A stretch of 64,000 nt of DNA, taken from Eledone cirrhosa. Lineage: Eukaryota. The stretch is from contig CAXHJY010001389.1 in assembly GCA_964016885.1 (NCBI GenBank), positions 113,372 to 177,371 of the forward strand, read 5' to 3'. The notes beneath the pieces are model-generated. The model did no database searches, was not told where the DNA came from, and saw only the letters and a program-made list of their open reading frames with translations. A program made the position numbers and the translations under genes. This document shows, piece by piece, positions 30,555 through 63,990 of the stretch. Numbering within the stretch: the stretch's first letter is position 1; each line of letters begins with the position of its first letter.

Positions 30555-31470
30555 GAATACTGACTGATTTACAGGTGTATCTATAGCTCAATGCAGTTAC
30601 ACAGAGTTATTATCCATCAATGGGTTACACAGAGTTATTATACATTAAGATTTAAAGCATTTTCAAATTGACAACTGTTTCTACCTTTAGAGAGTGACAG
30701 GTTTCATCAGAGTGTATTAAAACACTATTAATTCATATAGAAAATCATTAGGAACATCATATACATAAAATCACTTTAATGTTTTTCTGTGTGAATTAAT
30801 AGTAATAGTTTTAATAAACTCCTATGAAAGTTGTGGCTCTATACATCTAGAAACAGATGTCAGTTTAAAATTGCTTTAAATCTTTGGTGTCATTTAAATT
30901 TTAATGTATTTATTGTGGGTGATCCCATTATTAGGAGGATCAAGCCAGTTAGCTGTGTTGGGAGCTATATTGCTCATAGTGGAACCATGTCTTTGGTTGG
31001 GATTTCATGGCTGCTGCATGCCTTTCCTAAGCACATATTTTATATATATATATATACAATACACTTTACACATATATATACACACATATATAAAAGACAC
31101 ACACACACACGCACACACACAATGAAATACCAATGACGGTTGGCAAATCACTGATGAGGGACTAATTTTATAATATGTAATCCATGTGCAACCATGCAGT
31201 ATTCTTCTCCCCTTGTTTTTCATATATATATATATATATATACATACACTAGCTGTTGCCCGATATAGGTTTGTTATTTTTATTGATTTATTACTTTAAA
31301 TCGAGTCAGGCAAACCATATTGTTTTAAATCAGTATTTTTTCAACCTAGCTAACTTGGTCATTTACAATTAGAACACATGTATACTTGTATCAGTGTTCT
31401 TCCCTCTCATATATTCAATTGTATATATATATATATATATATATATACATACAATTGAATATATATATAT

Positions 31471-31856
31471 CATCATCATCATCATCATTTTACGTCCGCT
31501 TTTCCTTGCTTGCAAGGGTGGGACGGGAACTGATTCTGGCTTGATTTCTACAGCTGGATGCCCTTCCTAACACCAACCTCATCTACAGTGAGTGCTGGGT
31601 GCTTTTTTTCTGTGGCACCTCCACGACCACTTTACAGTGTGGGCTGGGTGCTTTTTTGCCATGGCATCTCCACGACCACTTTGCAGTGGAATGATAGGGA
31701 CCCCAATCCCATCATCTCATTTCTACAGCTGACTAAACTGGAGCAATGTGAAATAAAGTGTCTTGCTCAAGGAAACAACACATCACCCGGTCTGAGAATT
31801 GAACTCACAACCTTTTGAGTACAAGGCCAATGCTCTAACCATTAAGCCACGTGCCT
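31471..31856 (-). mobile_element. tRNA-derived SINE with CORE-like domain and RTE-type (ATG)n tail
   Basis: Minus strand has A-box TGGCTTAATGG, B-box GAGTTCAATTC, CORE-like CCTTGAGCAAGACACTTTA and tail ...GCGGACGTAAAATGATGATG. The tail is shared with the RTE fragment at 33.6 kb. Confidence 0.8.
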
Positions 31857-32316
31857 ATATATATGCCCATACATTACAAATCCATACATATAACATATAT
31901 AAAGATATATATACATATATATATCTATATATTATATTACATATATGCCCACATCTGCTCCATGCAGTTGTTTTTAATCAGTTACTGACTTCCTTCATGT
32001 GTTACCTTCACTAGGGTTTGTGGAGCCCACGTCTTCACCCTAACCATAACTTTACTTTACTTGGGGAAACAGCGGCCCCCAGAATAACAATCAACGTTGG
32101 CGGTGTTACAGGGGAGGTGAGTGAGTAAAGACAGAGAAGGAGAGGTTGAGGGGGTAGGAGAGGTGAGTGGGGGAAAGAGAGAGGTGGGGCAGTTAGCGTA
32201 GGTGAGTGAGTAAAGACAGAGAGGGAGGGGTTGGGGGAGGTGATGGGGAAAGAGAGGTGGAGATATTGTGGAAATGAGGAAGGATAGAAGGCAATGTCAG
32301 CTAAAACTACCAACTA

Positions 32317-33000: not shown

Positions 33001-33578
33001 AATAAGCGAATAAGTCTCAGACGGAAAAAGAAATCAAATAAACATTGAGATGTTAAAATTATGGAAAGAAATTTTACTGACTGGAGTAATTAATTCAAAA
33101 TATAGGTAAAAATAATAAGTAAAGAAAAACGAAAAAGAAACTTATGTTTCCTTCATAGGTAGAAATAAGAAGATGTATCTTTCCTATCATGACTGGTCTT
33201 GAGAATAGCGGGCATTGCTCTAGGGTGGGCATGTGTGTGTCTGTGTAAACATTAAGCAAATAGGACTGTGAAACACTGAAATATCAATGTAGATATATCT
33301 AGAATAAATGTAAAGTAATCATTAAATGTCCTTATATGTAAATAATACATTCTGGAAACAAAACCAACAATAAACACTCACTCTAAATACCAGTATGGGG
33401 GAGACAGACTTTTTCGAGCTGCATCTGTCATATTATGCAGTTTCTGTGTAAGAATAAACAAGAAACAATATCTATTGTCATCTGCAGGGAGCAAATAGAC
33501 CCAAGGGACGAACAGATAATTTTATTGAAAAATACTGGAGTGCCGTCCCACCTAACAAACCAAAATAAACAATATATG

Positions 33579-34000
33579 TCATCATCATCATCATCATCAT
33601 CACCGTTTTACGTCCGTTCTTCCACGCTAGCATGGGTTAGACGGGTTGTCCTGTTGTGGGCAGTGTCTGGTCAGCTGACCATGCCTTGCTCATACAGGAA
33701 CTGATCTGGCTTGATTTCTACAGCTGGATGCCCTTCCTAACACCAACCTCATTTACAGTGAGTGCTGGGTGCTTTTTCGTGGCGCCTACACGTCCACTTT
33801 ACAGTGTGGGCTGGGTGCTTTTTTGCCGTGGCACCTCCACGACCACCTTGCGGTGGTGGTGGTGGGGGGGAGGCATATTGTTTATATGCTTCAGCATGTA
33901 CCCATGGGAGGTCGGGTACCCTGTATTACTGCGTGACGCCAGAAGTCACGGTCGTGTGTCATTGACTTTGAGAGGTGTAGTTGGGTAAGGTCGGCTTTTA
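33579..34000 (-). mobile_element. 5'-truncated RTE-clade LINE 3' end
   Basis: Minus strand translates to KADLTQLHLSKSMTHDRDFWRHAV (RTE C-terminal D-R-x-x-W-R motif), followed by a 3' UTR and a (TGA)n tail. Confidence 0.75.
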
Positions 34001-35696: not shown

Positions 35697-36592
35697 AAAC
35701 TGCATGCGGTGGATGAAGTGTTGTATGTGTCTCACTAATTCTTTAGGATTGCACATGCGGGACACGTTCCTCATCAGTTTTACTAAATCCGTTGAATTTC
35801 ATGTTATCCGAAATGGCTGAGGTTTGGTGGATCAGGTATTTGGAGGTCATGGGTTTGGTATAATGAGAATGGAGTATTTGTGTTCTATTATTAATAGTTT
35901 CTAACCTGAGTTCTGTTTCTAGTACAGGTAATCTATGGTTAAGGTCTTTATTTGGGTAGTCTATAGTAACTTTAATACTCTGGTGGATGGAGTTAGCTAT
36001 TTGCTGGATACTTTCCATGGTGTTCTTCTCTAATTCCTGACGTCCTCCTGTGGGGGTGTTTTCTCTATGATCATTATGTCATCTACATAGCGGGAGTACA
36101 TAGTTAGGGTTATAAAATTCTCAACTAAGCGTTCCTTAAGTCTTCTGTCCCACCATATCATAAGGAGGTTAGCTATGTCATCTGCAGTGCTGACGCCAAT
36201 GGCTTCCTCCTCCTCTTGAGCATATGTTTTGCCATTAAACTTAAACATATGTTCCTTAAGGGTTAGTTTTATACTGGCCCCCACCGCATGAGCGATCGTT
36301 TTCTTTACTTCATTGTGGTATTCGGGGGTCTGTATGGTTCTGGTCCACCCGCTCTATCTTTCTGTGTGGGCCTTCTTAGCCATTCCGGTAATGGTAGGTG
36401 GTCTGCTGCTCTCTGGCCTTCTGAGGAAGAGGTTGCTAAGGTTTTGTGTGGTGTGTGTAAATAATCCTTATTGTGTGTACGTTTAAGTAGGAGTCCCAGC
36501 TAACTGGTATCAATCCCACTGAATTCCACATCGCTCTCACTCATCATTTTTACGCATTTTTCCACAACAAAATCAACTTCGATGGTATAGAA
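35697..36592 (-). pseudogene. Penelope-like RT fragment, older copy and target of the hAT insertion
   Basis: Frameshifted pieces ...AIGVSTADDIANLLM...YSRYVDDI...IANSIHQSIKVTIDYP...HFIHRMQF, homologous to the PLE at 43-45 kb. Confidence 0.9.
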
Positions 36593-37209: not shown

Positions 37210-38760
37210 TCAATGGGACCCTTGAGCTTCATGGAGTTTAGCTAACTCTTTGACGTCAGGCTGGATTTTCGTGAGCTGTAGCCGGAGATCTCCACGTGCA
37301 ACCACATTGTAGCGGTTGCGAGACTTACTATGCAGTCTAGAAACAACGCCAAACCCCCTCTCGACTAAGTATGAGCTAGGAAAAGGCAAAGCAAATCTCT
37401 TAGCCTCTGCTTGTAGGAGTGGAAATCGACGCTGAATTTCCTCTTGCATCCAAAAAAAGGGGTTCAGCTATTTTGAAAAATTTTATTTTGATAATGTCAT
37501 CCGTCTGATGTTCAATTAATTCTTCCTGAAAGTTAACATCGAAATCGTCGACGTTAACTATGAAGGGATCTGCTATCCACATTGGGATGTCCATCTGCAA
37601 AAGGTCGACAAACCGTTCTCTCATGTTGTCTTGTAGTGCACGGAGGTGCGCGGTATAAATTTGGAGTTGGTCATCGCTTACAATGTTTTGAACATTGGCG
37701 ACACTAGGAAAATTATAGAATTCCCGTCGACAAAGATTCTTTTCGATGACTTTCAATTTGGCCAGGAATATTTTCACAGCATTCCTTGCTTTAAACAAGG
37801 TGATCTTCTCCCCCTGCAAAGCTATAATGAGGCTATTGCATTTGTCGAAGATGTCGGCGAGGTAGGCGCAGTCTTGCCTCACATCGAGGTTTTTTTATAC
37901 AGTTCTGTGTTGCGTCCTCGAAGAAATTCAATGATAGAGTCGAACAGTTCAAAGAAGCGAGTAAAGCACTTGCCCTTTGAAAGCCACCTCACTTCAGTAT
38001 GAAGGAACAACTCGACGAATTCTTCGTCATTATCTTCGCACAGATGCCGGAAAATTCGTTCATTGAGGGCATGGCGTTTGATATAATTGATGACATCAAT
38101 GGCTACCTGCAAAGACTTGCTCAGCGGCTCGCTGAGTTTCTTCGCAAGTGTTGTCGATGAATGACACGATGAAGAGCAAATACAGATGGATTTTTCCCTC
38201 TTCAGAAGAGAGACGAAACCCTTATGTTGGCCGACCATTGATCTTGCGCCGCCCGTAGCACATGATACAATATTGTTAAGAGGTATCTCTTTTTCTTCGA
38301 GGTATCCCTTGACAGATTCAAAGATGGTGGCACCTTTAGTATCTGTGGTTAGATTCAGAGTGAAGAGAAGCTCCTCATGCATTTCGTTTTGGTGGAAAAA
38401 TCGCACGTATCCCAGTAGTAAGGACTGATTCCCGGAAAGTGTGCTTTCATCAAATTGCAAAGCCAATTGTGTCGATTTCAAGATGTTGCATAATTGTTGT
38501 TCAACATTTTCCGCCATTTCGTCGCTGCGTCTCCTTATTGAGTCGTTACTCAACGGAATACATTTCAAGGTCTTTAACGGGTTTTGATGTAGTACTGTTG
38601 AAAGATCTTCTGAGATGACAGGGGCTACCAATGTTTCACCCAAGGACTCCTTGCAAAGTAAACACATGGGTGACAGGTGGTTCGACGGCGATGGGATGAA
38701 TCCGAACCGTAAGTAATCAATGCTGTACTGCCTGCATTTTTTCTTCATTGCTGAGGCCAT
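37210..38760 (-). pseudogene. Buster/Charlie hAT transposase (ZBED5/FAM200/SCAND3-like), frameshifted
   Basis: KKCRQYSIDYLRFGF...PMCLLC (truncated BED finger), LQFDEST, CATGGA (the usual TDGA aspartate is lost), HTEVRWLSKG, FPSSYLVERGF. Split over three ORFs. Confidence 0.92.
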
Positions 38761-39498
38761 TTTCTGTTTATCGAATGTGTTTGGTAAAGTTACGCAAAGA
38801 TTTGCCTATATAAGCCTATAAACTTATGTATAAGGAACTTACTATAATGAGTCCTATTCCAGTATGATAAAGTTTTAAGTAATGTTCTGGGATAACACTT
38901 TGTAATAAACAAAACTGCAATGAAAAACACAAATACTGTCATTAATTAACCAAGTCGAGACAAGTTATATATGAAGATTAACCAGTCTTTTATGTAGGAA
39001 TAGTAATAACTTAGCTTGAGGGAATTAAGGTGGCAGACTCAATAAAGGATCAACGAGGCAACGAGTTCAAGAGAACTTAATGCAAGAATGACTAGTAATG
39101 TGTTATTTTGAAATGGAATTCATCAATTAGGCACGTAGTGATAAGACGCGATAATACTAAGTTAAGACATTACTTATTAGTCAGAGTTACTCAAATTATC
39201 GCCCTTACCTTAATGCATCACTGTGATATTCTTGTAATGGTGCTGCAATTATAATGGATGATTGTTGAAGACTACAAAAGCATTTCCTTAAACCCAAGGC
39301 TATAACAAGACTTGATTGTAGTATAAACAGTCAGTTTATATAGGAATAGCAACAACCTAGTTATAGAATAAATGATGTGGAAATGCAATGAAGATAAGAT
39401 GGGGTCAAGCAAACCGAATGTTAGTAAGAATGAGCTGAAGTATCAAGGTCAAGCTGATCACGGTGATGAACGGGTCAGTGAATAATGTTGCTCTTTTC

Positions 39499-40210
39499 CA
39501 GGGACCTCGTTTGCCTTAAAAATGTGAGGGGGACAAACCAACATTTGTTGGAGCATTTTAGTATTACTTATGGTATCTTTCCTGAACCCTATCACATAAG
39601 TAAACATTTCTTTACGCTAATTAAATTTTATATATTCAAATGAAGTTCAGATATAAAAAAAAAATAAGCTTAAAAAGTATTTATTATATCAAATAAACAA
39701 AAAATAAAACATAGACGTTTGAATAAAAATCATATAAAGTAAATTTATTGTCTTTTAGAACTTTCCAAATGTATCATATCTCGCATCAATGCTGTCAATA
39801 AATAATTTAGCAACTTCTTCACAACTAATCTTTTTCAAAACATCTTTATGAACGTCTCATATTAGAATATGATTCAACCTTTGCTGAGACATGGTCGATC
39901 GCAACCAAGTTTTGAGTCTCTGCAGAGTGTTCAAAGATCTTTCAGCTTCACAAGAACTGGTTGGAAACATTAAAAGTAGCCTGAGCAATCGCTCAACATT
40001 TCGAAACATGCGATGGACATCTGGTTGCATTTCACCGAATATTTTATGATGATTCTTGAGAGATGATCCACTATGATGATTTCTATAAAAAAAGTATTTC
40101 ATTCCTTAAAGAAAATTCATCAATCTCTGGATACTGCATGATCACTTCAGCACAAACATTTCCATTGAGTAAAATATTGCTCAGTTTTTCATAGTATGCT
40201 AAATCCTGTG
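39499..40210 (-). mobile_element. 3' fragment of a second hAT (Tip100/ZMYM1-like) with dimerisation domain
   Basis: ORF 39857-40102 reads LLRLLLMFPTSSCEAERSLNTLQRLKTWLRSTMSQQRLNH. Possible terminus CAGGGACCTCG at 39499; the other end was not found. Confidence 0.75.
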
Positions 40211-40466
40211 AAAAAAAAAAATCTTTCAAATTTGATATTGCAGTATATTATATATAGTACTGTAATTCTCGCTTTACATCACCACTTGTGTTTAGTTTTA
40301 GTTTTTGCATTGGACTATATTTGTAATATGGTTCAAAATGTTATTCCCTTCCTTAGCAATTTTTACTTGATAATATTTACTTGATAATTTTCCTATGCTT
40401 TAATGTATGTATACTCCATATTCTTCTGAGTTTTTGGCTTGTATTGGCCGATAGTGCTTCTTATAG

Positions 40467-40520
40467 CTTTACTTGCCCTGATGAGTCCTTAATAGGACGA
40501 AACATTGTTGGCTAATAAAG
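40467..40520 (+). ncRNA. Type-I hammerhead ribozyme (PLE pLTR remnant)
   Basis: ctttacttgcc-CTGATGA-GTCCT taat AGGAC-GAAA-CATTG-TT-ggctaataaag. Stem I pairs 9/11, stem II is 5 bp, and AATAAA overlaps the 3' arm. Confidence 0.85.
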
Positions 40521-40557
40521 ACTTTTGATGTATTGAAGGCTTCTTTGGTTTATTTTC

Positions 40558-40618
<61 letters not shown>

Positions 40619-40804
40619 AATATATATATTACACACACACACATATATATATTTATATATATTTACATATACGTATGTATATAGCCATGCATTTATACAT
40701 TTGTATATATACATGCATTTATATTTAAGTGTGTAAGGTTATATATATATATATAAATGAAGTAACAGGAGGCTGGACTGGTGTAAATCCTTGAAAGGTT
40801 TATT

Positions 40805-40862
40805 ATACTATGATCATTTCAATGACCGGGTTCCATATGAATTCGGTGATATCATCAGGTAT
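40805..40862 (-). ncRNA. Type-I hammerhead, family B
   Basis: Reverse-complement copy of 41762-41819. Confidence 0.8.
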
Positions 40863-41761
40863 TGGAATATAAAAAGGAATATGTAAAAAGCCATGGGTCC
40901 GAAAAACCATGAGTCCGAGAAACCAGAGACAGAGAGGGCGGCTGACCAACTAGCTTCACAGCCAGCCACCCTCAAAGTGTTGGCAACCGAAAACTACCAG
41001 TGAATATCTGGTAAGGGGGCGCGTTAATAAACCCCTAATGTGTGATTTAAAAGTATTCGTGGTATAGACGATGGCCTGTCGAAATTGTGGGGTTCCCGCT
41101 AGCGATCCCGGGGCCATTGTTAACTACGTTCCTAGAGTACTCGGAGAAATTAATTTCCATTTCTTTCGCTGGACGATACCACTCGAGACTGGCTGACTCA
41201 CGGTGGTGGGTGTGCTGGCTGGGACTCCCAATCGAAATCTTTACTCTATATCCCATCCTAATATCTTATCGAGTTAAACATTTTTTTCATACAAGACTCT
41301 CTCCGTAAGCTCGTTAAATAAATAAATCTCGCTACCTCTATTTTTCAATTTACCATTTTGCAATATAATATTTTTAATTTAATTTATTTCATCCTATAAC
41401 TGGCAACATAAGTTTAGCGTTCCAATCTTTGGTTCACACATTAGACCATACAGACACCCACTATAGATTCTTTGGGTAGCATTTTTTTTTTCGCGGCATT
41501 TTCTAACATGAATGTAGTTTGACCCTTACACTACACTTCTTTCTCCCTTTCTTTCCTCCCCCTCTTCTTTGACGGAGTGGTGGTAGTACATGATAGGCCT
41601 GCGCCCCCTTACCAGATATTCACTGGTAGTCTTCGGTTGCCAACACTTTGAGGGTGGCTGGCTGTGAAGCTAGTTGGTCAGCCGCTCACTCTGTCTCTGG
41701 TTTCTCGGACTCATGGCTTTTCGGACCCATGGCTTTTTACATATTCCTTTGTTATATTCCA

Positions 41762-41819
41762 ATACCTGATGATATCACCGGATTCATATGGAACCCGGTC
41801 ATTGAAATGATCATAGTAT
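41762..41819 (+). ncRNA. Type-I hammerhead, family B
   Basis: ATAC-CTGATGA-[tatcACCGGattcatatggaacCCGGTcatt]-GAAA-TGATCA-TA-GTAT. Palindromic stem-loop III (UGAUCA), AUA cleavage site, AATAAA follows. Confidence 0.82.
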
Positions 41820-42011
41820 AATAAACGTTTCAAGGATTTACACCAGTCCAGCCTCCTGTTATTTCATTTATAATTAACTCCGTATTCGCACCACCAACTA
41901 CACAAACGAAGATGGGTGAACTGCATTGCGTTGAGTACTCTTCACAATATTACACCAGGATTGACCATACGGAATGACCAGTTCTATCCAGTGGTGAACC
42001 AACAAACCTTA

Positions 42012-42072
<61 letters not shown>

Positions 42073-42411
42073 CATTTATATTGTACATTTTAACCATTCT
42101 GCTCTGATGATACAGTGGTCACAGCATTTGATAATTGAGTTTTGCAAATAGTTGTAAATTTGCACGTAGCATAACTAGGCTGTACAACCACCGTGGAAAC
42201 ATTTGTAAGCACACGGAATAAATTACCTTTTTATGATGTCTACCTGTTATTATTCATTCTTCATATATATATATATATATATATATATAACCTTACACAC
42301 TTAAATATAAATGCATGTATATATACAAATGTATAGATGCATAGCTATATACATACGTATATGTATGTATGTATGTAGATTTATATATATAGATATGTAT
42401 GTATGTAGATT

Positions 42412-42471
<60 letters not shown>

Positions 42472-42667
42472 TCGTTTCTGAATTTGTTTAGCAAGATTCT
42501 TTATCTGAAAACCTGCGTTGAAACCGATATTGTTATACTTTGGGAGGGTCATGTTGCCAATAAGAAACACACGCACTTCAGTTTATTATAATAAATTTAT
42601 AAATTTATAAATTTATAAATTTCCAGTTGGTTGCTTGGTTCCACAACCAGATGATTGTTTATATATT

Positions 42668-42710
42668 CTCAAAGTTCTTTCGTCACACATTATGTGACCT
42701 CTTCAGTGAC
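42668..42710 (-). ncRNA. Type-I hammerhead, family A, intact core
   Basis: GUCA-CUGAAGA-G-GUCACA uaaug UGUGAC-GAAA-GAAC-UU-UGAG. Confidence 0.8.
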
Positions 42711-42899
42711 TGGGGATTCTTTTCTTTGTTTTTGTGCCTCTCTTTTGTTCTGTCCTACGCCATTTTGTTTTTTTATGTGTGTTGTGTGCTTATTTTGCGT
42801 ATGTGTTATACCCGGGTGTCTGTGTGTGTTTATATTTGTTTATTTACATGTTACTGGTTGGTTGTTTGTTCTATGTGCGTGTGTGTTTTCATTTTGTCC

Positions 42900-45800
42900 T
42901 TAATTGTAAGTTGTGATGTTGCTGTTCCATTCATGTTTTCTATTTAATTTTGGTTGGAGTCCATTTATGTTTATTGCCTCTGTGATTTGTCAAAACATTG
43001 CGTCTTTTCTGTGTGTAGATTCTATTTTTATTTCTATGTTCTCTAATTTACCCTTATGTTCTATTTTAGAATGTTGATAGAGTACAGATGGTTCTTTACT
43101 ATCTTGAAGGTCTCGCCAGTGTTCATTTATCCGTTCCCCTATACTACGAGCTGTCTCACCTATGTACACTATATTTTTATCTCTACATTGTCCTTCAGTA
43201 CATCTTATGCTATATACTACATTTCTAGTTTTACAGTTAATATGGGGGCTTAATTTACAGATTATACATTTCTTATCTATACAGGGAGGTCTTTGAAAAG
43301 GGTATGTATTGCTAATAAGTGTTTTTATTGGTCTTTCTACTATCTTAATATTAATTTTATGTTTATCTAGGGCCCTTCTAAATTTGTAAGCTAATTCACC
43401 TCTAGGGGTTGTATCGATGAACATTACACTCTGGTATTTATTGCTATCTTACCATGAGTTTATTCTATTAGCCTTATTCCTAGTTCTTTCTATTCTATTC
43501 CACAATTTGCTCCTATACAAGGGGCAGGTCCCATTTGTGTCATTATTTACCATTTATTCCCATTTGGTTCTGGCTCCTCTATATACTCTGATTTTATCTC
43601 TCTGATTGTAACCAGAGAACTGCATACGGTGGATGAAGTGTTGTATGTGTCTCTCTAGTTCTTTGGGGTTGCACATGCGGGACACGTTTCTCATCACTCG
43701 TACCAAATCCGCAATCAGTATGTTGATTATGGTATGGGCCAAACCAGCTGAGTTTCGGTGGATCAGATATTTGGAAGTCATGGGTTTTGCATAATGGGAA
43801 TGGAGAATTTGTTTTTTGTTATTAATGGTATCTAACCAGAGCTCTGTGTCTAGTACAGGTAATCGATGGTTGGGGTGTTTGCTTGGGTAGTCTATAGTAA
43901 CTCTAATACTCTGGTGGATGGAGTTAGCTATTTGCTGGATGCTTTCCATTGTGTTTTTCTCTAATTCCTGACTGTTCTCTAGTGGGGGTGTTTTTACTAC
44001 GATGTTTATATCATCAACGTAGCGGGAGCACATTATCAGGGTTAAGGGTATTCTAATTGTTCTTTAAGTTTAAGTCTACTGTCCCACCATACCATAAATA
44101 GGTTAGCTATGTCGCCTGCAATGCTAACACCAATGGCTTCTCCCTCCTCTTGGGCATATGTTTTTCCATTAAATTTGAACATATGTTCCTTAAGGGTTAA
44201 TTTTATACTGGCCCCCACCGCATGTGCAATCATTTTCTTTAGTTCATCTTGGTTTTCGGGGGTCCGTATGGTTCTGGTCCACCCGTTCCATCTATCTGTG
44301 TGGGTTTTCTTGGCCATTGAGGTAATGGTATGTGGTCTGCCTCTTGCTGGTCTTGTAGGGCACAGGTTGCTAAGGCCATATGTATCTAGATAATCATTAC
44401 TATAGGTAAGTTTAAGTAGGAGTCCCAGCTCACTGGTATCAATCCCACGGAATTCAACATTGTTCTCACTGATCATTTCTATGCATTTCTCCACAGCAAA
44501 ATCCACGTCAATAGATGGATACAGGGACACAACATCCATACTACCTATTATACAGTTTGTTAGGTCCCTAGATCGGTTACTCTCGCCGATTCTGCTGAGG
44601 AGGTCCTTCGTGCTGTCACATACATCTGGGGACATTTCAATGATGGGGCGTATGATCAGGGAGAGGAAGTAGGACAGTCTGTAGTTACTAGCAATGTTAG
44701 CTCCACAGACTGGCCGTGTTGGTGGTCCTGTGACAGGGTCACTGCTCGTTTTATGGTCTTTTCGAAGCCCATACAACGCTGGCACGTCATTGTTCCAGGC
44801 CTGGAAGTTGTTGGCAGTCCTTTTGTTGGGCTGCATTATATTTGTCCACATCATCATATGAGCATTGAGGGCTTTTTCCCTATCCTCATGCTCTTGTGGT
44901 GTTACTTCTTTTGTGTTAGTGATGTGGGGTTGCATTGCCTGGATGTAGTTTGGCAGACTGTCAACCGACATTCTGCCAGACTTGTCTGTTGGAAAGCATG
45001 CTATCTCTCCATTACGCGAGCGCTGCATGAGCTTACGTAAGCCATTTGCAGATTTTTCTCCCAGTTGCTGGGCCTCCATTCTATTATGCTTCTTGCTATA
45101 CTGTTCTATAATATTTCTAAGTTTAGATCTAGCTATACTAAATTGTGCTTCTGTTTGTTCATCGACCCGCGACGGCAATTGCGTGCGTTTGTTAAAAGCC
45201 AAAGTCGTGGCGTGGACTCGTCGCAGGTCGAACGACTTATCGGAAGGATTATAAAATGTAGAGTTCCAGGCTGCTGATTTACTAGTGCTATTGTTATTGT
45301 TAGTTGTGTTGTTTCTATTTCTATTTCCACCAACAGCCTCATGGTTGTTTCTATGTATCTCATTATTACTCCTGTCTCTTTCCTCTGGCTCATTGTTATT
45401 ATCTACTCTATTTTGTGTGTCTGTGTGTTCGTCCTGGTTATTTTCTCTGTCCATAGTCTCTCTTCTCCTTTCAATCCTATTACCTTCCCTTATTTCTGTG
45501 CTACTATCATTACCTGTTTTCTGTGTCTGTGTGTTTGTTAAGATTGTGGTGGTGGTGAGAGGCATTGAATGTGTGTGTGTTGTTGTTGTTGTTGTTGATG
45601 TGTGCTGTTGTTGATGTGTGTTGTTGTTATTGTCTTCGTGTATGTTATTATTTTTGTGTGTGTTGTTATTGTTGTTTGTGTCTGCGTGTCTGTTGTTGTT
45701 GTTTCTGAGTATGTTATTATTGTTGATGTGTGTGTTGTTGTTATTGTTGTTCGTGCCTGTGTGTCTGTTGCTGTTGGGATATGTGTTGTATATGTGTGTC

Positions 45801-46611
45801 TGTGTGTGTGCGTATGTTGTTACTTTTGTTTTTGTTTTTGAGGCTCCAACGTAATTTTGTAAATGATTTTTCTATCTCTGACAAACATTTAATCATATTT
45901 ACCTTATTAAATGTGGCATACTTAGGTGGTTGTTGTAATACTGATAATTCATCAGAGTCGACCGTAGTGTTGCCGTATATATTTGTGTTGTTGTTGTTGA
46001 ATTCATCTGTTAATGAGATGTCGGCCATATTTATACCGTCAATTTTGTCGGGATATCTATTGATATTCTCTAAAGTATCTTGATTTAGTTTTATCTGTTT
46101 GAGCCACTTTAGTTTCTTGTTAAAGTGCTTGTCACATTCTTGAACAATTTACTTTTCTTCAGGACGTATAAGGTTTATAAATATAATTTTTCTCTTGGTG
46201 TGGTGATCTTACTTATTTCTTGTAATAGGTTACGCTTATGTTTTTCTTGATGACTTAATTCTCTATAAATCTTCTTTTTCATGTTTAGAATTAGTGTTCG
46301 TTTTAGCCTATCTGCTTGCTTTTTGGTGAGCTGTAATCTTCTTACATCGGTGTTGATGGTGTTGGTGTAAATTCAGGACGAGGCACATTCTTTTATGAAG
46401 TGTAGTTGTCGAGATGTTATTGTTTTTCGAGACAACAGAACATGGTGGTTTTCAGTATCTTGTTAGCCTGGCTAAGGCTTACGATATTTCGTTTCTGAAT
46501 TTGTTTAGCAAGATGCTTTATCTGAAAACGTGTGTTGAAACCGATATTGTTATACTTTGGGAGGGTCACATTTAGGAATTTATAAATTTCTGGTTGGTTG
46601 GTTGGTTCCAC
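42900..46611 (-). pseudogene. PLE polyprotein: N-terminal domain, RT, Cys-rich linker and GIY-YIG endonuclease, disrupted
   Basis: YGLRKDHK...PTRPVCG, DVVSLYPSID, AIGVSIAGDIANLFM, RYVDDI, PCIDKKCIIC, NVVYSIRC...YIGETARSIGERINEH. Contains frameshifts and stops, plus a low-complexity N/T/H insert at about 45250-45840. Confidence 0.93.
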
Positions 46612-46896: not shown

Positions 46897-46960
<64 letters not shown>

Positions 46961-47172
46961 TTTCTGAATTTGTTTAGCAAGATCCTTTATCTGAAAACGT
47001 GTGATGAAACTGATATTGTTATGCTTTGGGAGAGTCATGTTGCCAATAAGAAACACACGCACCAGTTGCTTTCACTCCAATTTATTATAAATTAAATTTA
47101 TAAATTTAAGAATTTATAAATTTCCGGTTGGTTGGTTGGTTGGTTCCATAACCGGACGGTTGTTCATATATT

Positions 47173-47215
47173 GTCAAAGTTCTTTCATCACACATTCTGT
47201 GACCTTTTCAGTGAC
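47173..47215 (-). ncRNA. Hammerhead, family A, decayed (G8A)
   Basis: GUCA-CUGAAAA-GGUCACA gaaug UGUGAU-GAAA-GAAC-UU-UGAC. Confidence 0.65.
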
Positions 47216-49184
47216 TAGGGATTCTTTTCTTTGTTTTGTGCCTCTCCTTTGTTCTGTCCTACGTCATCTTGTTTTTGTGTGTGTTGTGTGCTTAGTTTGC
47301 GCATGTGTTACATCCGGGTCTCTGTGTGTGTTTTTATTTGTTTATTTATATGTTTATTTACATGTTACTGGTTGGTTGTTTGTTCTATGTGTGTGTGTGT
47401 TTTCATTTTGTCCTTAATTGTAAGTTGTGATGTTGCTATTCCATTCATGTTTTCTATTTAATTTTGGTTGGAGTTCATTTATGTTTATTGCCTCTGTGAT
47501 TTGTCTAAACATTGCGTGTTTTCTGTGTGTAGATTCTATTTTTATTTCTATGTTCTCTAATTTGCACTTATGTTCTATTTTAGCATGTTGGTGGAGATTT
47601 GATGAATCTTTTTTATCTTAAAGTTCTCGCCAGTGTTCATTTAACCGTTCTCCTATACTACGAGCTGTCTCACCTATGTACACTATATTTTTATCTCTAC
47701 ATTGTCCTTCAGTACATCTTATGCTATATACTACATTTCTAGTTTTACAGTTAATATGGGGGCTTAGTTTACAGACTATGCATTTCTTATCTATAGAGGG
47801 AGGTCTTTGAAAAGGGTATGTATTGCTAATAAGTGTTTTTATGGACGTACCTGGTCTTTCTACTATCTTAATATTAATTTTATCTAGGGCCCTTCTAAAT
47901 TTGTAAGCTAATTCACCTCTAGGGGTTGTATTGATGAACATTACACTCTGGTATTTATTGCTATCATACCATGAGTTTAATCTATTAACCTTATTCCTAG
48001 TTCTTTCTATTCTATTCCAAAATTTGCTCCTATACAAGGGGCAGGTCTCTTTTGTATCATTATTTACCATTTTTTCCCATTTGGTTCTGGCTCCTCTATA
48101 TACTCTGATTTTATCTCTCTGTAACCAGAGAACTGCATACGGTGGATGAAGTGTTGTATGTGTCTCTCTAGTTCTTTGGGGTTGCACATGCGGGACACGT
48201 TTCTCATCACCCATACCAAATCTGCAATCAGTATGTTGATTTTGGTGTGATCCGAAAGAGCTGAGTTTCGGTGGATCAGATATTTGGAAGTCATGGGTTT
48301 GGCATAATGGGAATGGAGGATTTGTTTTTTGTTATTAATGGTTTCTAACCAGAGCTCTGTGTCTAGTACAGGTAATCGATGGTTGGGGTGTTTGCTTGGG
48401 TAGTCTATAGAAACTCTAATACTCTGGTGGATGGAGTTAGCTATTTGCTGAATGCTATCCATGGTGTTTTTCTCTAATTCCTGACTGTTCTCTAGTGGGG
48501 GTGTTTTTACTACGATGTTTATATCATCAACTTAGTGGGAGTACATTATCAGGGTTAAGAGGTTGCTGTCTTCTAATTCTTCTTTAAGTTTAAGTTTAAG
48601 TCTATTGTCCCACCATACCATGAATAGGTTAGCTATGTCACCTGCAATGCTAACACCAATGGCTGCTCCCTCCTCTTGGGCATATGTTTTTCCATTAAAT
48701 TTGAACATATGTTCCTTAAGGGTTAATTTTATACTGGCCCCCACCGCATGTGCAATCATTTTCTTTAGTTCATCGTGGTTTTCGGGGGTCCGTATGGTTC
48801 TGGTCCACCCGTTCCATTTTTTTGTGTAGGTTTTCTTGGCCATTGGATAATGGTAGGTGGTCTGCCTCTTGCTGGTCTTGTAGGGCACAGGTTGTTAAAA
48901 TCATATGTATCTAGATAATCATTACTATAGGTAAGTTTAAGTAGGAGTCCCACGGAATCCAACAGAATTCAACATTTCTCTTACTGATCATTTCTACGCA
49001 TTTCTCCACAGCAAAATCCACGTCAATGGATGGATATAGGGACACAACACCCATACTACCTATTATACAGTTTGTTAGGTCCCTAGATCGGTTACTTTCG
49101 CTGATTCTGCTGAGGAGGTCCTCCGTGCTGTCACATATATCTGGGAACAAAGGAGAGGCACAAAAACAAAGAAAAGAATCCCCA

Positions 49185-49227
49185 GTCACTGAAGAGGTCA
49201 CAGAATGTGCGAGGAAAGAACTTTGAC
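49185..49227 (+). ncRNA. Hammerhead, family A, in the inverted pLTR
   Basis: GUCA-CUGAAGA-GGUCACA gaaug UGCGAG-GAAA-GAAC-UU-UGAC; stem II weakened. Confidence 0.72.
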
Positions 49228-49529
49228 AATATATGAACAACCGTCCGGTTATGGAACCAACCAACCAACCGGAAATTTATAAATTCTTAAATTTATAAAT
49301 TTAATTTATAATAAATTGGAGTGAAAGCAACTGGTGCGTGTGTTTCTTATTGGCAACATGACCCTCCCAAAGCATAACAATATATATATATATATATATA
49401 TATAAATATATAAATCTACATACATACATATATACATACATTTATATTTAAGTGTGTAAGGATGTTGATATGATCTATGTCTTCTTTTTTTGGTAAGGAG
49501 AACATTAACATCAATAACTAACGCCGGCC

Positions 49530-50410: not shown

Positions 50411-50740
50411 CATAACAAAGCAGAGACACAAAATAAGACATCAGTCACTGAAAGGCTCACAGAATGTGAGACGAAAGAGCTGTGACCCCCCCCCCCCCCA
50501 GTGACTGATATCCTATTTGGTGTCTCTCCTGTGTTATGTTATATACCATGGAAGTTGATTTTGTCGTGGAAACCCATGACCTCCAAATATCTGATCCACC
50601 GAACCTCAGCCATTTCGGATAACATGAAATTCAACATACTGATTGCGGATTTAGTAAGAGTGGTGAGGAACGTGTCCCGCATGTGCAATCCTAAAGAATT
50701 AGTGAGACACATACAACACTTCATCCACCGCATGCAGTTC
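50411..50740. mobile_element. Rest of the fold-back PLE split by the hAT: pLTR piece, poly-C, mirrored pLTR/RT arm
   Basis: 50499-50572 is the reverse complement of 36559-36592 joined to 50411-50450. 50573-50740 is the reverse complement of about 35697-35855. Confidence 0.85.
50444..50486 (+). ncRNA. Degenerate hammerhead, family A-related
   Basis: GUCA-CUGAAAG-GCUCACA gaa UGUGAGAC-GAAA-GAGC-UG-UGAC; core and cleavage site are altered. Confidence 0.5.
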
Positions 50741-50742
50741 TC

Positions 50743-51163
50743 TTTTTCCGTGCTAGCATGGGTTAGACGAATTGTCCTGTTGTGGGCAAAGCCAAGTCAA
50801 GTGACCATGTCTTGCTCATATAGAACTGATTTTGGCTTGATTTCGACAGATGGATGTACTTCCTAACACCAAGCTCATTTACAGTGTGGACTGGGTGATT
50901 TTTTGTCGTGACACCTACACGACCACTTTACAATGGGAGGGGGTGCAGCATACTGTCTATATGCTCCAGCTTCGGCTTGTACCCATGGGAAGTGGTGTAT
51001 CACCACGTAACGCCAGATGTCTTGGCCCCGTGTCATCACCTTTCAGAAGTTCAATTGGGCAAGATCGGCTTTTATCACCTCATCCTAGTCTTATTCGGTG
51101 TCCCCCACTCCAAGGTTTGCATCGACTTTGAGTGCTCTGCACCATTTTATTCAGTTGTCATCC

Positions 51164-51168: not shown

Positions 51169-51225
<57 letters not shown>

Positions 51226-51339
51226 TAAGAGGAATTCCAACTTTGTCTGATTTACTCGTTTTATTTACAATCCTTTAAAATATATATAATGGTATTATAA
51301 TGAAATAGTATGATAGAATATTAAATTCTAAGTGTTAAT

Positions 51340-51378
51340 TGAACAAGTACTTTCATGCTTTCGCAATCTTCAGGTTCA
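51340..51378 (-). ncRNA. Minimal type-I hammerhead, mirror copy
   Basis: Reverse complement of 51452-51490. Confidence 0.85.
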
Positions 51379-51451
51379 TGATATGTGGTGACAGTCGAGT
51401 TTGCAATTTTCAACTGTGGAAAATTGCAAACTCGACTGTCACCACATATCA

Positions 51452-51490
51452 TGAACCTGAAGATTGCGAAAGCATGAAAGTACTTGTTCA
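51452..51490 (+). ncRNA. Minimal type-I hammerhead (39 nt)
   Basis: UGAAC-CUGAAGA-uUGC gaaa GCAu-GAAA-GUAC-UU-GUUCA. Stem I is 5 bp, stem II has a GNRA loop, loop III is the palindrome GUAC. Confidence 0.85.
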
Positions 51491-51849
51491 ATTAACACTT
51501 AGAATTTAATATTCTATCATACTATTTCATTATAATACCATTATATATATTTTAAAGGATTGTAAATAAAACGAGTAAATCAGACAAAGTTGGAATTCCT
51601 CTTATTAATATAATCTTCTATACACAATCATACACACCCGTGTATATTTACCTATCTATATCTATATATATATATATATATATATATACGTATAAATTAC
51701 TTCGAGTATTTGTAGTTAATTACCGACACTTCAGTATACAGGATAGAGCACTCGACGAAGTGCACAGGTGGGTCTGTTTACTCCAGAGTATATTTATAAA
51801 CATGAAGTACAAATCAACAGGTTAAGATTAACTTCGTTCAATCATAGTC

Positions 51850-53104: not shown

Positions 53105-55196
<2,092 letters not shown>

Positions 55197-55248
55197 TATA
55201 ATGAAATGACAGGAGGCTGGATTTGTGTAAATCCTTGAAAGGTTTATT

Positions 55249-55306
55249 ATACTATGATCATTTCAATGACCGGGTTCCGTATGAATCCGGTGGTATCATC
55301 AGGTAT
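55249..55306 (-). ncRNA. Type-I hammerhead, family B
   Basis: Mirror of 55421-55478 with one substitution in stem II. Confidence 0.8.
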
Positions 55307-55420
55307 TCGAAATATAATACGTGAATGTAATAGGTAAAATCCATGGGGCTTCGAGACCCGAGGGCGACCGCTATTCTGTTCCTTCAATTTTACGTATTAC
55401 ATTCACGTATTATATTTCGA

Positions 55421-55478
55421 ATACCTGATGATATCACCGGATTCATACGGAACCCGGTCATTGAAATGATCATAGTAT
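55421..55478 (+). ncRNA. Type-I hammerhead, family B
   Basis: ATAC-CTGATGA-[tatcACCGGattcatacggaacCCGGTcatt]-GAAA-TGATCA-TA-GTAT, then AATAAA. Confidence 0.82.
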
Positions 55479-55674
55479 AATAAACCTTTCAAGGATTTAC
55501 ACAAATCCAGCCTCCTGTCATTTCATTATAATATTTAACTCCGTAATAGCACCACCAACTACAAAAACAAAGACGGTTGAACTGCTTTACGTTGAGTACT
55601 CTCTATATTATTGCATTACGATTGACCATACGGAATAGACCATCTCTATACAGTGGTGAACCTCAAACCTGAAT

Positions 55675-62420: not shown

Positions 62421-63990
62421 AGATCTCCTTAATGAAAGCTCCATAGACCTCATCATGTACTCTCGTTATGTAGACGATATCAATATAGTTATAAGAACAC
62501 CCCCACTAGAGAGCACTAACAAGTTTGATTTAGAACGTAGCACGATGGAAAGCATCCAGCAGATAGCTAATTCCCATACACCAGAGTATAACTGTAACTA
62601 TAGACTTCCCTTCCAAACACCCTAACAATAGACTACCTGTATTAGACACAGAACTCTGGATTAACACTATAGACGAGAGAGCCCAAATTCTCCACTCACA
62701 CTATGCTAAACCCATGGCCTCCAAATACCTGATACTCAAAAACTCAGCAATGTCCAGTAGTGCTAAGTTTAATATTCTGATCGCAGATTTGGTACGAGTG
62801 ATGAAGAATGTGTCCAGCATGTGCGACCCAACAGAAATGGAAGGACACATCCAACACTTCATCAACCGCATGCAGTTCTCTGGCTACAACCAAAGAGACA
62901 GAGTCAGAGTATACGAAGGAGCCATGGAAAAAGTATAAGACCCTCATAGAACTGGACATGAAAGGAATTTGCCCACTATACAGGAGCAAATCATGGAATA
63001 GCTTAGATAGGGCTAGACATAAGATAGGGAAGGCCACATCATGGTTACGACAACCAGAGATATCAGAGTGTGTTTGTGGACGCCACCCCTGGAGGGAAAT
63101 TAGCTAACCAGTGTAGAAAGGCCCTGAGAAAGACCCACTTAAAAATAAAGGTGGTAGAAAAGCCAGGAACCACCATAAAATCCCTGATCAGCAAAACCTA
63201 CCCTTTTAAGAAAACCCACTGTACCAATAGGAAATGTATCATATGTAAGGTGAACCCCCGGATAAACTGTAAAACTAGAAACGTAGTCTATAGCATAAGA
63301 TGTACAGAGGGTACTTGCAGAAACACGACAACAACATACATAGGTGAGACAGCTCGTAGCATAGGTGAAAGGATAGACCAACACTGGGGGGAACTAAAAG
63401 GACGAAAAAACGGGTCAGTACTATACGAACATGCTAGACAACATCATGACGGTAACATAGACAACATAGAAATTAGAATAATATCTAAACATAGGAATGA
63501 CCCAGCAGATAGGCAAATCAGAGAGGCCAGTGAAATAGAAATTAGAAGACCAAAGCTAAACAGAAAGAATGAGTGGAACAACAACAACACCCAAACAAAC
63601 AACACTGACCTAAGAGAAGTATAAATAAATAAGTAAATTAAATTAAATAAAAAAAAAAAAAAAAAAATAAAAAAAATAAAAAAAAAATAAAATAAGATAA
63701 ATAAATACATACACAAGCACATAAACACACACTAGTCACCCAGCAGACACAACACTATACACACTAGTCACACATCACACATAACACTATACACACACGC
63801 AAGCGCATGCGCAAAGAAGACAAATTAAAATAAGATAAACAAACAAGCAAATAAATAAATAAATATATAGACAGACTGAACAAAAAAAAAAAAAAAATGG
63901 CGTAGACATACAACACAACAGGAGGAACAATGAATATAACACCACTGACGATGTTGCAGATGTGCAACGAAAGATTTATGTAAACTATAT
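62421..63990 (+). mobile_element. 5'-truncated Penelope-like element, diverged relative of family A
   Basis: [12 protein letters not shown]...HFINRMQFSGY...CTNRKCIIC...NVVYSIRC...YIGETARSIGERIDQH...RQIREA, with frameshifts. The 3' UTR contains a hammerhead. Confidence 0.93.
63942..63981 (+). ncRNA. Type-I hammerhead in the PLE 3' UTR
   Basis: cCA-CUGACGA-U-GUUGCA gaug UGCAAC-GAAA-GAUU-UA-UG. Perfect 6-bp stem II, weak stem I. Confidence 0.72.

Follow-up and report, generated by a model that had tools for sequence, protein, structure and literature searches.

We consider it likely that the 1.26-kb repeat at positions 40752-42012 of the 64,000-nucleotide stretch analysed here (the window) is a recent insertion into (TA)n that holds one hammerhead-bearing 3' end twice, in opposite orientations, and that it was written by the reverse transcriptase (RT) and GIY-YIG endonuclease of a Penelope-like element (PLE) encoded elsewhere. 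The PLE source of this family, here called family B, is probably in the Hydra clade. Family B is classed purely by structure: it shows the testable features of a PLE insertion, namely an inverted, 5'-truncated copy with variable inner ends, a one-sided tail and a type I hammerhead within the repeat. We do not file it as an autonomous PLE, because the insertion at 40752-42012 holds no single ORF with a PLE reverse transcriptase and GIY-YIG domain, and we do not assign it to the Hydra clade. The tie of family B to PLE machinery rests on anatomy, and no RT or endonuclease is linked to it in the data examined.

Results

Anatomy of the insertion

The insertion consists of two inverted arms around a spacer, with a tail on one side. 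Its features, and those of a second copy in the window, are as follows.

40739-40755, no strand: left (TA)n target flank; TATA overlap with the arm end
40752-41022, minus strand: left arm, a tail-less inverted copy of the element 3' end; 264 of 272 columns match the right arm; ends with a 4-nt TATA overlap onto the (TA)n flank
40799-40804, minus strand: left-arm AATAAA, immediately 3' of stem I
40805-40862, minus strand: left-arm hammerhead motif; a G-to-A difference breaks one stem II pair
41023-41600, no strand: 578-nt spacer; single copy in the window, without detectable coding trace
41305-41600, plus strand: putative intron-like stretch within the spacer, with GTAAG at 41305, CTAAC near 41503, a 35/36 pyrimidine run from 41536 and several AG ahead of the right arm
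41601-41872, plus strand: right arm, a direct copy of the 3' end, pLTR-like
41762-41819, plus strand: right-arm type I hammerhead motif with a 4-bp stem I, U/U at the base of a long stem II and a palindromic 8-nt stem III
41820-41825, plus strand: right-arm AATAAA
41873-42012, plus strand: 140-nt one-sided tail, common to the second copy, with an identical end point
42014-42069, no strand: right (TA)n target flank
55190-55673, plus strand: second family-B insertion, within (TA)n, with arms at 55190-55340 and 55387-55537, a 46-nt spacer and the same tail
55249-55306, minus strand: second-copy hammerhead, left arm
55421-55478, plus strand: second-copy hammerhead, right arm

A preliminary description of this DNA gave inverted arms of about 270 bp around a spacer of about 580 bp, and this is borne out: the arms are 97% complementary (97.06% over 272 columns with blastn; 264 matches, 7 substitutions and 1 gap in a global alignment) and the spacer between them measures 578 nt. 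It also placed one hammerhead motif in each arm, each then followed by AATAAA, and both were found, at 41762-41819 (+) and 40805-40862 (-). The tail of about 140 bp that it saw on the right only is likewise real, as 41873-42012 is unmatched on the left side (141 nt lead to the first TA run), and at 140 nt it does exceed known Penelope tails, for which 30-40 bp has been published. The hammerheads on both strands are a single motif duplicated in inverted orientation and not an ambisense RNA; the motif is counted once, and likewise AATAAA.

The whole repeat is embedded in a TA microsatellite, with (TA)n on both sides. These flanks would mask any target duplication around both family-B copies, and none is readable. 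Neither copy has a poly(A) stretch (longest A run 3), and a head-to-tail partial tandem (direct pLTR) is absent from both copies in the window. Tandem arrays within the element are of 16-bp units only, and the unit length of family B is more than 990 nt or open-ended.

A short TA-rich segment occurs three times, at 40640-40738 (+), 42290-42390 (-) and 49439-49461 (+). Two of its copies form an inverted pair that encloses the insertion plus 190 nt of unique DNA; over about 80 nt of their less repetitive part, they differ at 2 positions. The segment is also found downstream of the 3' ends of the coding PLE family described below. A transduced flank and an inverted target duplication are candidate readings of it.

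Comparison with the second copy

The second copy is 87% identical to the first over 265 columns (blastn), and the two share both outer 3' ends, that is, the tail-less left end and the tail end. Their inner parts differ: arm length is 272 nt in the first copy versus about 142-151 nt in the second, the spacer 578 versus 46 nt, and the inversion point lies about 35 nt upstream of the hammerhead core in the second copy versus 165 nt in the first. Within a copy the arms differ by 7 substitutions in 272 columns (first) or 2 in 142 (second). They are far closer to each other than the copies are, as would follow if a single template gave rise to both arms of a copy in one event.

The hammerhead is the best-preserved part, identical at 57 of 58 nt between copies. 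The tail is about 83% identical (118 matches, 21 substitutions and 3 gap columns against 55533-55673), so that 1 of 58 hammerhead positions is substituted versus 21 of 139 in the tail (Fisher p=0.005, a single post-hoc test on two copies). Similarity between copies drops directly upstream of stem I, and nhmmer with 41601-41761 left the second copy unmatched at E<=1. Local alignment in this region retains about 45 nt, in the left arm of the second copy, with a score of 27 that exceeds all of 300 shuffles. In the second copy, then, it is the tail-less arm that is the longer one, and its inner edge continues the family sequence. Given that similarity fades upstream of stem I, the conserved unit runs from the hammerhead through the tail end.

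Neighbouring Penelope-like insertions

Family B is not the only such insertion nearby. A coding PLE copy at about 46960-49383 has RT and GIY-YIG sequence between its inverted arms; hammerheads lie on both of its strands, and its one-sided tail measures 54 nt. The window also contains a third family, at 51218-51662, which is a near-perfect palindrome with 197-nt arms, a 1-nt gap, a hammerhead in each arm and a 50-nt right tail; its hammerheads also have U opposite U at the stem II base. The layout of family B is ordinary for Penelope-like insertions, and these two other families within 10 kb share it. The coding PLE sequence in this neighbourhood is from a family that is unrelated to family B and has another hammerhead. 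Decayed copies of that coding family lie at 46960-49383, 42470-45871 (-), 35700-36580 (-) and 62430-63620 (+), with 42-59% identity to P0003 over the main matches.

Tail and ends

Two features depart from the PLE descriptions consulted, the 140-nt tail and the long non-coding region upstream of the hammerhead. No PLE tail near 140 nt was found in the literature searched; Repbase or Dfam, supplements and subscription papers could hold one. Given the 50-54 nt tails of its neighbours, tail length appears to be a family trait. The family-B tail is without a significant fold overall (z -0.87 and -0.65 in the two copies), and none of its 35 predicted pairs has a double-sided change between the two sequences. 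A stem-loop with an AC-rich loop is common to both tails, with z -2.46 in one copy and -0.49 in the other.

At the opposite end, the tail-less arm terminates in a 4-5 nt TA-alternating overlap (TATA or ATAT) in all four inverted insertions examined. Such runs make up 2-4% of template positions. The flank at the tail-less junction of the second copy is irregular.

Hammerhead motif

The right-arm motif comprises stem I (ATAC at 41762-41765 and GTAT at 41816-41819), the core CTGATGA at 41766-41772, a 31-nt irregular stem II region, GAA and the palindromic stem III ATGATCAT at 41807-41814. The cut is predicted after A41815, and AATAAA (41820-41825) adjoins stem I. The minimal features of a PLE type I hammerhead are present, that is, the CUGANGA and GAAA core, a short stem I, a long stem II and a palindromic stem III. 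Dinucleotide shuffles of 41023-42012 satisfied the motif rule in 0 of 3000 cases with a 4-bp stem I and in 1 of 3000 with a 3-bp stem I. The G10.1-C11.1 pair at the stem II base, highly conserved in PLE hammerheads (PMC4209133, Cervera and de la Pena 2014), is absent, and U stands opposite U instead. At gathering score, Rfam gave no match across the whole window. At E<=10 it gave 49 matches in 40300-42300, none of them by a hammerhead model on the family-B arms; the sole hammerhead match in that interval is a neighbour at 40462-40532, with 29.1 bits versus a threshold of 52.

Folding predictions favour inactive structures. The monomer is predicted at -13.9 kcal/mol in an inactive fold versus -3.0 in the active one (monomer z-scores -0.19 to -1.33), and the double hammerhead, or dimer, at -35.4 versus -22.6 kcal/mol. 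The stem III self-duplex is predicted at -7.2 kcal/mol, and the left-arm hammerheads of both family-B copies have a stem II change. In the predicted read-through RNA of 40752-42012, 267 of 271 left-arm bases pair with the right arm, and the motif is buried. This copy is probably inert as a ribozyme, because its read-through RNA would fold into a long hairpin. Activity of the hammerhead would be confined to a tandem master, where it could work as a dimer or with protein assistance; copies on opposite strands cannot dimerise in cis.

Spacer and search for a gene

The spacer (41023-41600) has no other copy within the window. Neither strand of the roughly 740 nt upstream of the hammerhead looks coding. 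The PLE protein panel comprised 12 pieces, 5 from a database and 7 from the window, all relatives of the neighbouring coding family and without a Hydra-clade protein; with these 12 queries, tblastn gave a best E of 0.029 on the family-B element, and the control, the window's coding family, was matched down to 1e-127. An HMM of the 5 database proteins found no domain in the element (control 7e-73). Pfam on six read-through frames returned one sub-threshold match (DUF2197, E 0.022), NCBIfam on 8 ORFs one match (E 0.28), and a PDB search with the longest ORF (85 aa) three matches, all with E>=0.46. A word search with the 63-aa arm ORF gave no candidate, and nine short PLE motifs had 0 matches inside the element. 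A GIY-YIG stretch match at 41059-41172 (+) was rejected, with E=0.6 and the YIG missing.

Stop codons on the plus strand of these 740 nt are at chance level (counts as low in 960 of 1000 shuffles). One frame of the minus strand is marginally short of them (8 stops; 44 of 1000 shuffles as low, uncorrected), and the coding-family control reached 0 of 1000. In the neighbouring coding family the ORF ends about 200 nt from its hammerhead. The translated search of the spacer for a PLE endonuclease, proposed in the preliminary description, was negative by tblastn, HMM, Pfam, motifs and NCBIfam alike. Of the claim that the element is a truncated insertion of a PLE family with its master outside the window, the PLE anatomy and the lack of a coding master in the window stand, but truncation of a coding element is unsupported so far.

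Repeats between the spacer and the tail or arm score no better than shuffled sequence, as 31-238 of 300 shuffles did equally well. From its splice-like signals, 41305-41600 (+) is a candidate intron. None of 2000 shuffles produced a pyrimidine run to equal its 35/36, and PLEs are known to retain introns.

Discussion

A model for the insertion

The model proposed here starts from direct observations: the anatomy, two 3' ends common to both copies, inversion points that differ, a conserved hammerhead and no detectable ORF. The endonuclease would nick both strands of (TA)n, and each nick would prime a cDNA. We suspect that the RNA template was neither cut by the hammerhead nor polyadenylated at AATAAA, because the two family-B 3' ends, 140 nt apart, sit 57 and 197 nt past the predicted cut. 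AATAAA cannot have terminated the templates that were copied. The two cDNAs would start at fixed internal sites 140 nt apart, of which the inner one, TATA, could pair with the target; two fixed starts would give one tailed and one tail-less arm. Both cDNAs may then end prematurely, at points that vary, before they are joined head to head; the stretch common to both would form the inverted repeat, and whatever the longer cDNA has in addition would form the spacer. Such a two-cDNA mechanism would explain why the outer ends are shared and the inner ends vary, why the tail is on one side and why hammerheads lie on both strands.

Comparison with known systems

Hydra-clade proteins are marked by RWK, DKT, a CxCX5C linker and an endonuclease without CCHH. 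Family B has no ORF and is likened to this clade by its non-protein features. Hydra-clade PLEs such as Penelope-13_HM and Hydra-1_cRog have, like family B, a (TA)n target, a type I hammerhead near the 3' end and a near-palindromic stem III (PMC8557442, Craig et al. 2021); the irregular 31-nt stem II region of family B sets it apart. Insertion in (TA)n and a hammerhead near the 3' end, both found in family B, are typical of the Hydra clade but not exclusive to it. The same paper describes a (TA)n preference for Hydra families and, for Penelope-13_HM, an inverted 5'-truncated copy with a hammerhead on both strands and G-U at the stem II base. By our own count, 14 of the 26 rows for the Hydra clade in its File S2 (25 families) have U opposite U at that base, against 0 of the 8 Chlamys/PLE-X rows; the count covers these groups only, and Poseidon, Neptune or Nematis hammerheads may have U/U as well. 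The supplement of PMC8557442 lists one Octopus Hydra family, with a hammerhead that differs from that of family B, and nine 12-18 nt family-B motifs are absent from this supplement.

PLE insertions are described as an inverted 5'-truncated copy with a 30-40 bp tail at one end (PMC8557442). For the Poseidon element PAc of Anolis carolinensis, this tail spans the interval from one internal RT start to the other, and the RNA used in vitro is mainly uncut (PMC11167929, Frangieh et al. 2024). PAc resembles family B in having its tail downstream of the hammerhead and AT-rich targets. However, its tail is 30-40 bp and lies inside the ORF start, whereas the family-B tail is 140 nt without a conserved reading frame. 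In addition, RT starts in PAc at sites non-homologous to the cut DNA (PMC11167929), in contrast to the inner end of family B, which overlaps its target by TATA.

Penelope of Drosophila virilis and Adineta vaga shares with family B the inverted pLTRs, an optional one-sided tail, a palindromic stem III and hammerheads on opposite strands (PMC3846280, Arkhipova et al. 2013; PMC4209133). A further possible likeness is unrelated DNA captured between pLTRs (PMC3846280). The rotifer Penelope insertions described there have inverted pLTRs, a 31-bp tail (Pen2a_Av), target duplications of 8-10 bp and captured spacers, and the hammerheads in PMC4209133 are dual minimal motifs 100-700 bp apart on opposite strands, with a palindromic stem III and low activity. 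Family B differs from these elements in a tail about four times longer, a (TA)n target without visible duplication and the lack of G-C at the stem II base. Fixed target-site duplications would be a weak argument against a PLE, because rotifer Penelope insertions carry such 8-10 bp duplications and (TA)n masks them in family B.

Chlamys-dependent MRC1 and the animal non-LTR retrozymes are, like family B, without protein, carry PLE 3'-end or pLTR sequence and are thought to be moved in trans (PMC8557442; PMC7229834; bioRxiv 10.64898/2026.07.22.740005). They form head-to-tail arrays (retrozyme units of 150-450 bp), whereas family B is present as inverted, truncated, tailed insertions only. In O. 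vulgaris, Penelope-like elements make up 6.83% of the genome, in 190 families (PMC13282606); should the host be an octopus, insertions of this kind would be frequent. Family-B motifs are absent from the supplement of that paper, which contains no repeat library. DNA relatives of family B were found in neither plasmids nor phages, an exact family-B 23-mer had 0 occurrences in bacterial and archaeal genomes, and bacterial promoter and terminator scans were at chance level. A gapped family-B pattern hit 5 prokaryote loci, all within ORFs and with 14-nt matches only, which were taken as chance.

Alternative explanations

For the spacer, the reading that we favour, at somewhat short of an even chance, is a non-coding, non-autonomous template moved in trans. 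It would instead be the 3' untranslated region of an ordinary coding PLE if that region exceeded 740 nt and the copy was truncated ahead of the ORF, which we regard as rather unlikely. PLE copies are indeed strongly 5'-truncated (PMC8557442), a Hydra-type relic could escape an endonuclease panel composed of relatives of the neighbouring family, and the minus-strand frame with 8 stops (44 of 1000 shuffles) points the same way. However, all six frames are without a coding match (the tblastn best E of 0.029 and the HMM, Pfam and motif nulls), in the neighbouring family about 200 nt separate the ORF end from the hammerhead, and the two family-B copies diverge sharply directly upstream of the hammerhead. 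Capture of host DNA or another transcript between two pLTR copies, which would put the spacer outside the family, has a precedent in rotifer Pen1, with unique captured host spacers of 0.9-1.5 kb, and in the unrelated sequence between solo pLTRs (PMC3846280). The single-copy state of the spacer in the window and its intron-like signals on the plus strand are consistent with capture, but the left arm of the second copy runs on into family sequence, so the spacer may be the excess of the longer cDNA, and we hold capture to be slightly less likely still. A non-autonomous template or captured DNA fits the spacer as well as or better than a truncated coding element.

Another reading of the whole insertion is a cut-and-paste DNA element inserted at TA, such as a MITE, with the 270-bp arms as its terminal inverted repeats; the long inverted arms, TA-rich flanks and lack of coding capacity speak for it. 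This reading is largely refuted by the second copy: 140 nt found in both copies fall outside the right arm, the arms vary in length and in their inner ends where a MITE would have inverted repeats of fixed length at its very ends, and the best-conserved part is a hammerhead motif. We give it next to no probability. Very improbable too is an origin as a non-LTR retrozyme or as an integrated viroid-like RNA that has a ribozyme on each polarity. The type I hammerhead and the absence of protein would suit it, and retrozymes have been proposed to be non-autonomous PLE derivatives (bioRxiv 10.64898/2026.07.22.740005). But retrozymes are direct tandem repeats of 150-450 bp units (PMC7229834), each with a hammerhead, and family B has tandem arrays of 16-bp units only and a unit of more than 990 nt or open-ended. 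Moreover, its two hammerheads are one sequence in inverted duplication, and the pairing of 267 of 271 left-arm bases in the read-through RNA would hide the motif.

Implications

The preferred reading, a PLE insertion with a non-autonomous template, can be extended to a doubtful but specific form, in which family B would be a protein-free, SINE-like parasite of Hydra-clade PLEs with a cis unit of 250 nt that reaches from the hammerhead to the end of the tail. The parasite would retain an intron, and RT would start at sites 140 nt apart, at the inner one via TATA pairing with the microsatellite. If so, the RNA would determine tail length, rather than any fixed geometry of the enzyme dimer, which could be tested in families with tails of 35, 50 and 140 nt. 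If the template is non-autonomous, family B would also represent a dispersed, non-tandem type of PLE parasite alongside the retrozymes.

With its 140 nt, the tail extends the published range, and tail length is relevant to the choice of the two RT starts of a PLE, a process so far reconstituted for a single element (PMC11167929). From the perspective of annotation, non-coding inverted PLE copies are easily mistaken for MITEs. Rfam misses the family-B hammerhead, and a descriptor that allows U/U and a long stem II would improve repeat annotation.

Other repeats in the window

Three further unrelated hammerhead motifs lie at 40478 (+), 51903 (-) and 57617 (-), each 83-215 nt ahead of a (TA)n run, which brings the total to at least six hammerhead families within about 17 kb. 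Broken pieces of a hAT-type transposase occupy 37210-40105 (-), of which 39860-40105 matches Pfam Dimer_Tnp_hAT (E 1.9e-05). Short dispersed repeats at 31460-31860, 33570-34000 and 50740-51070 presumably resemble octopus SINEs, which would fit an invertebrate host, perhaps an octopus. A satellite with a 31-bp unit in about 945 copies extends over 1646-30554, and its recurring variant units suggest a higher-order structure.
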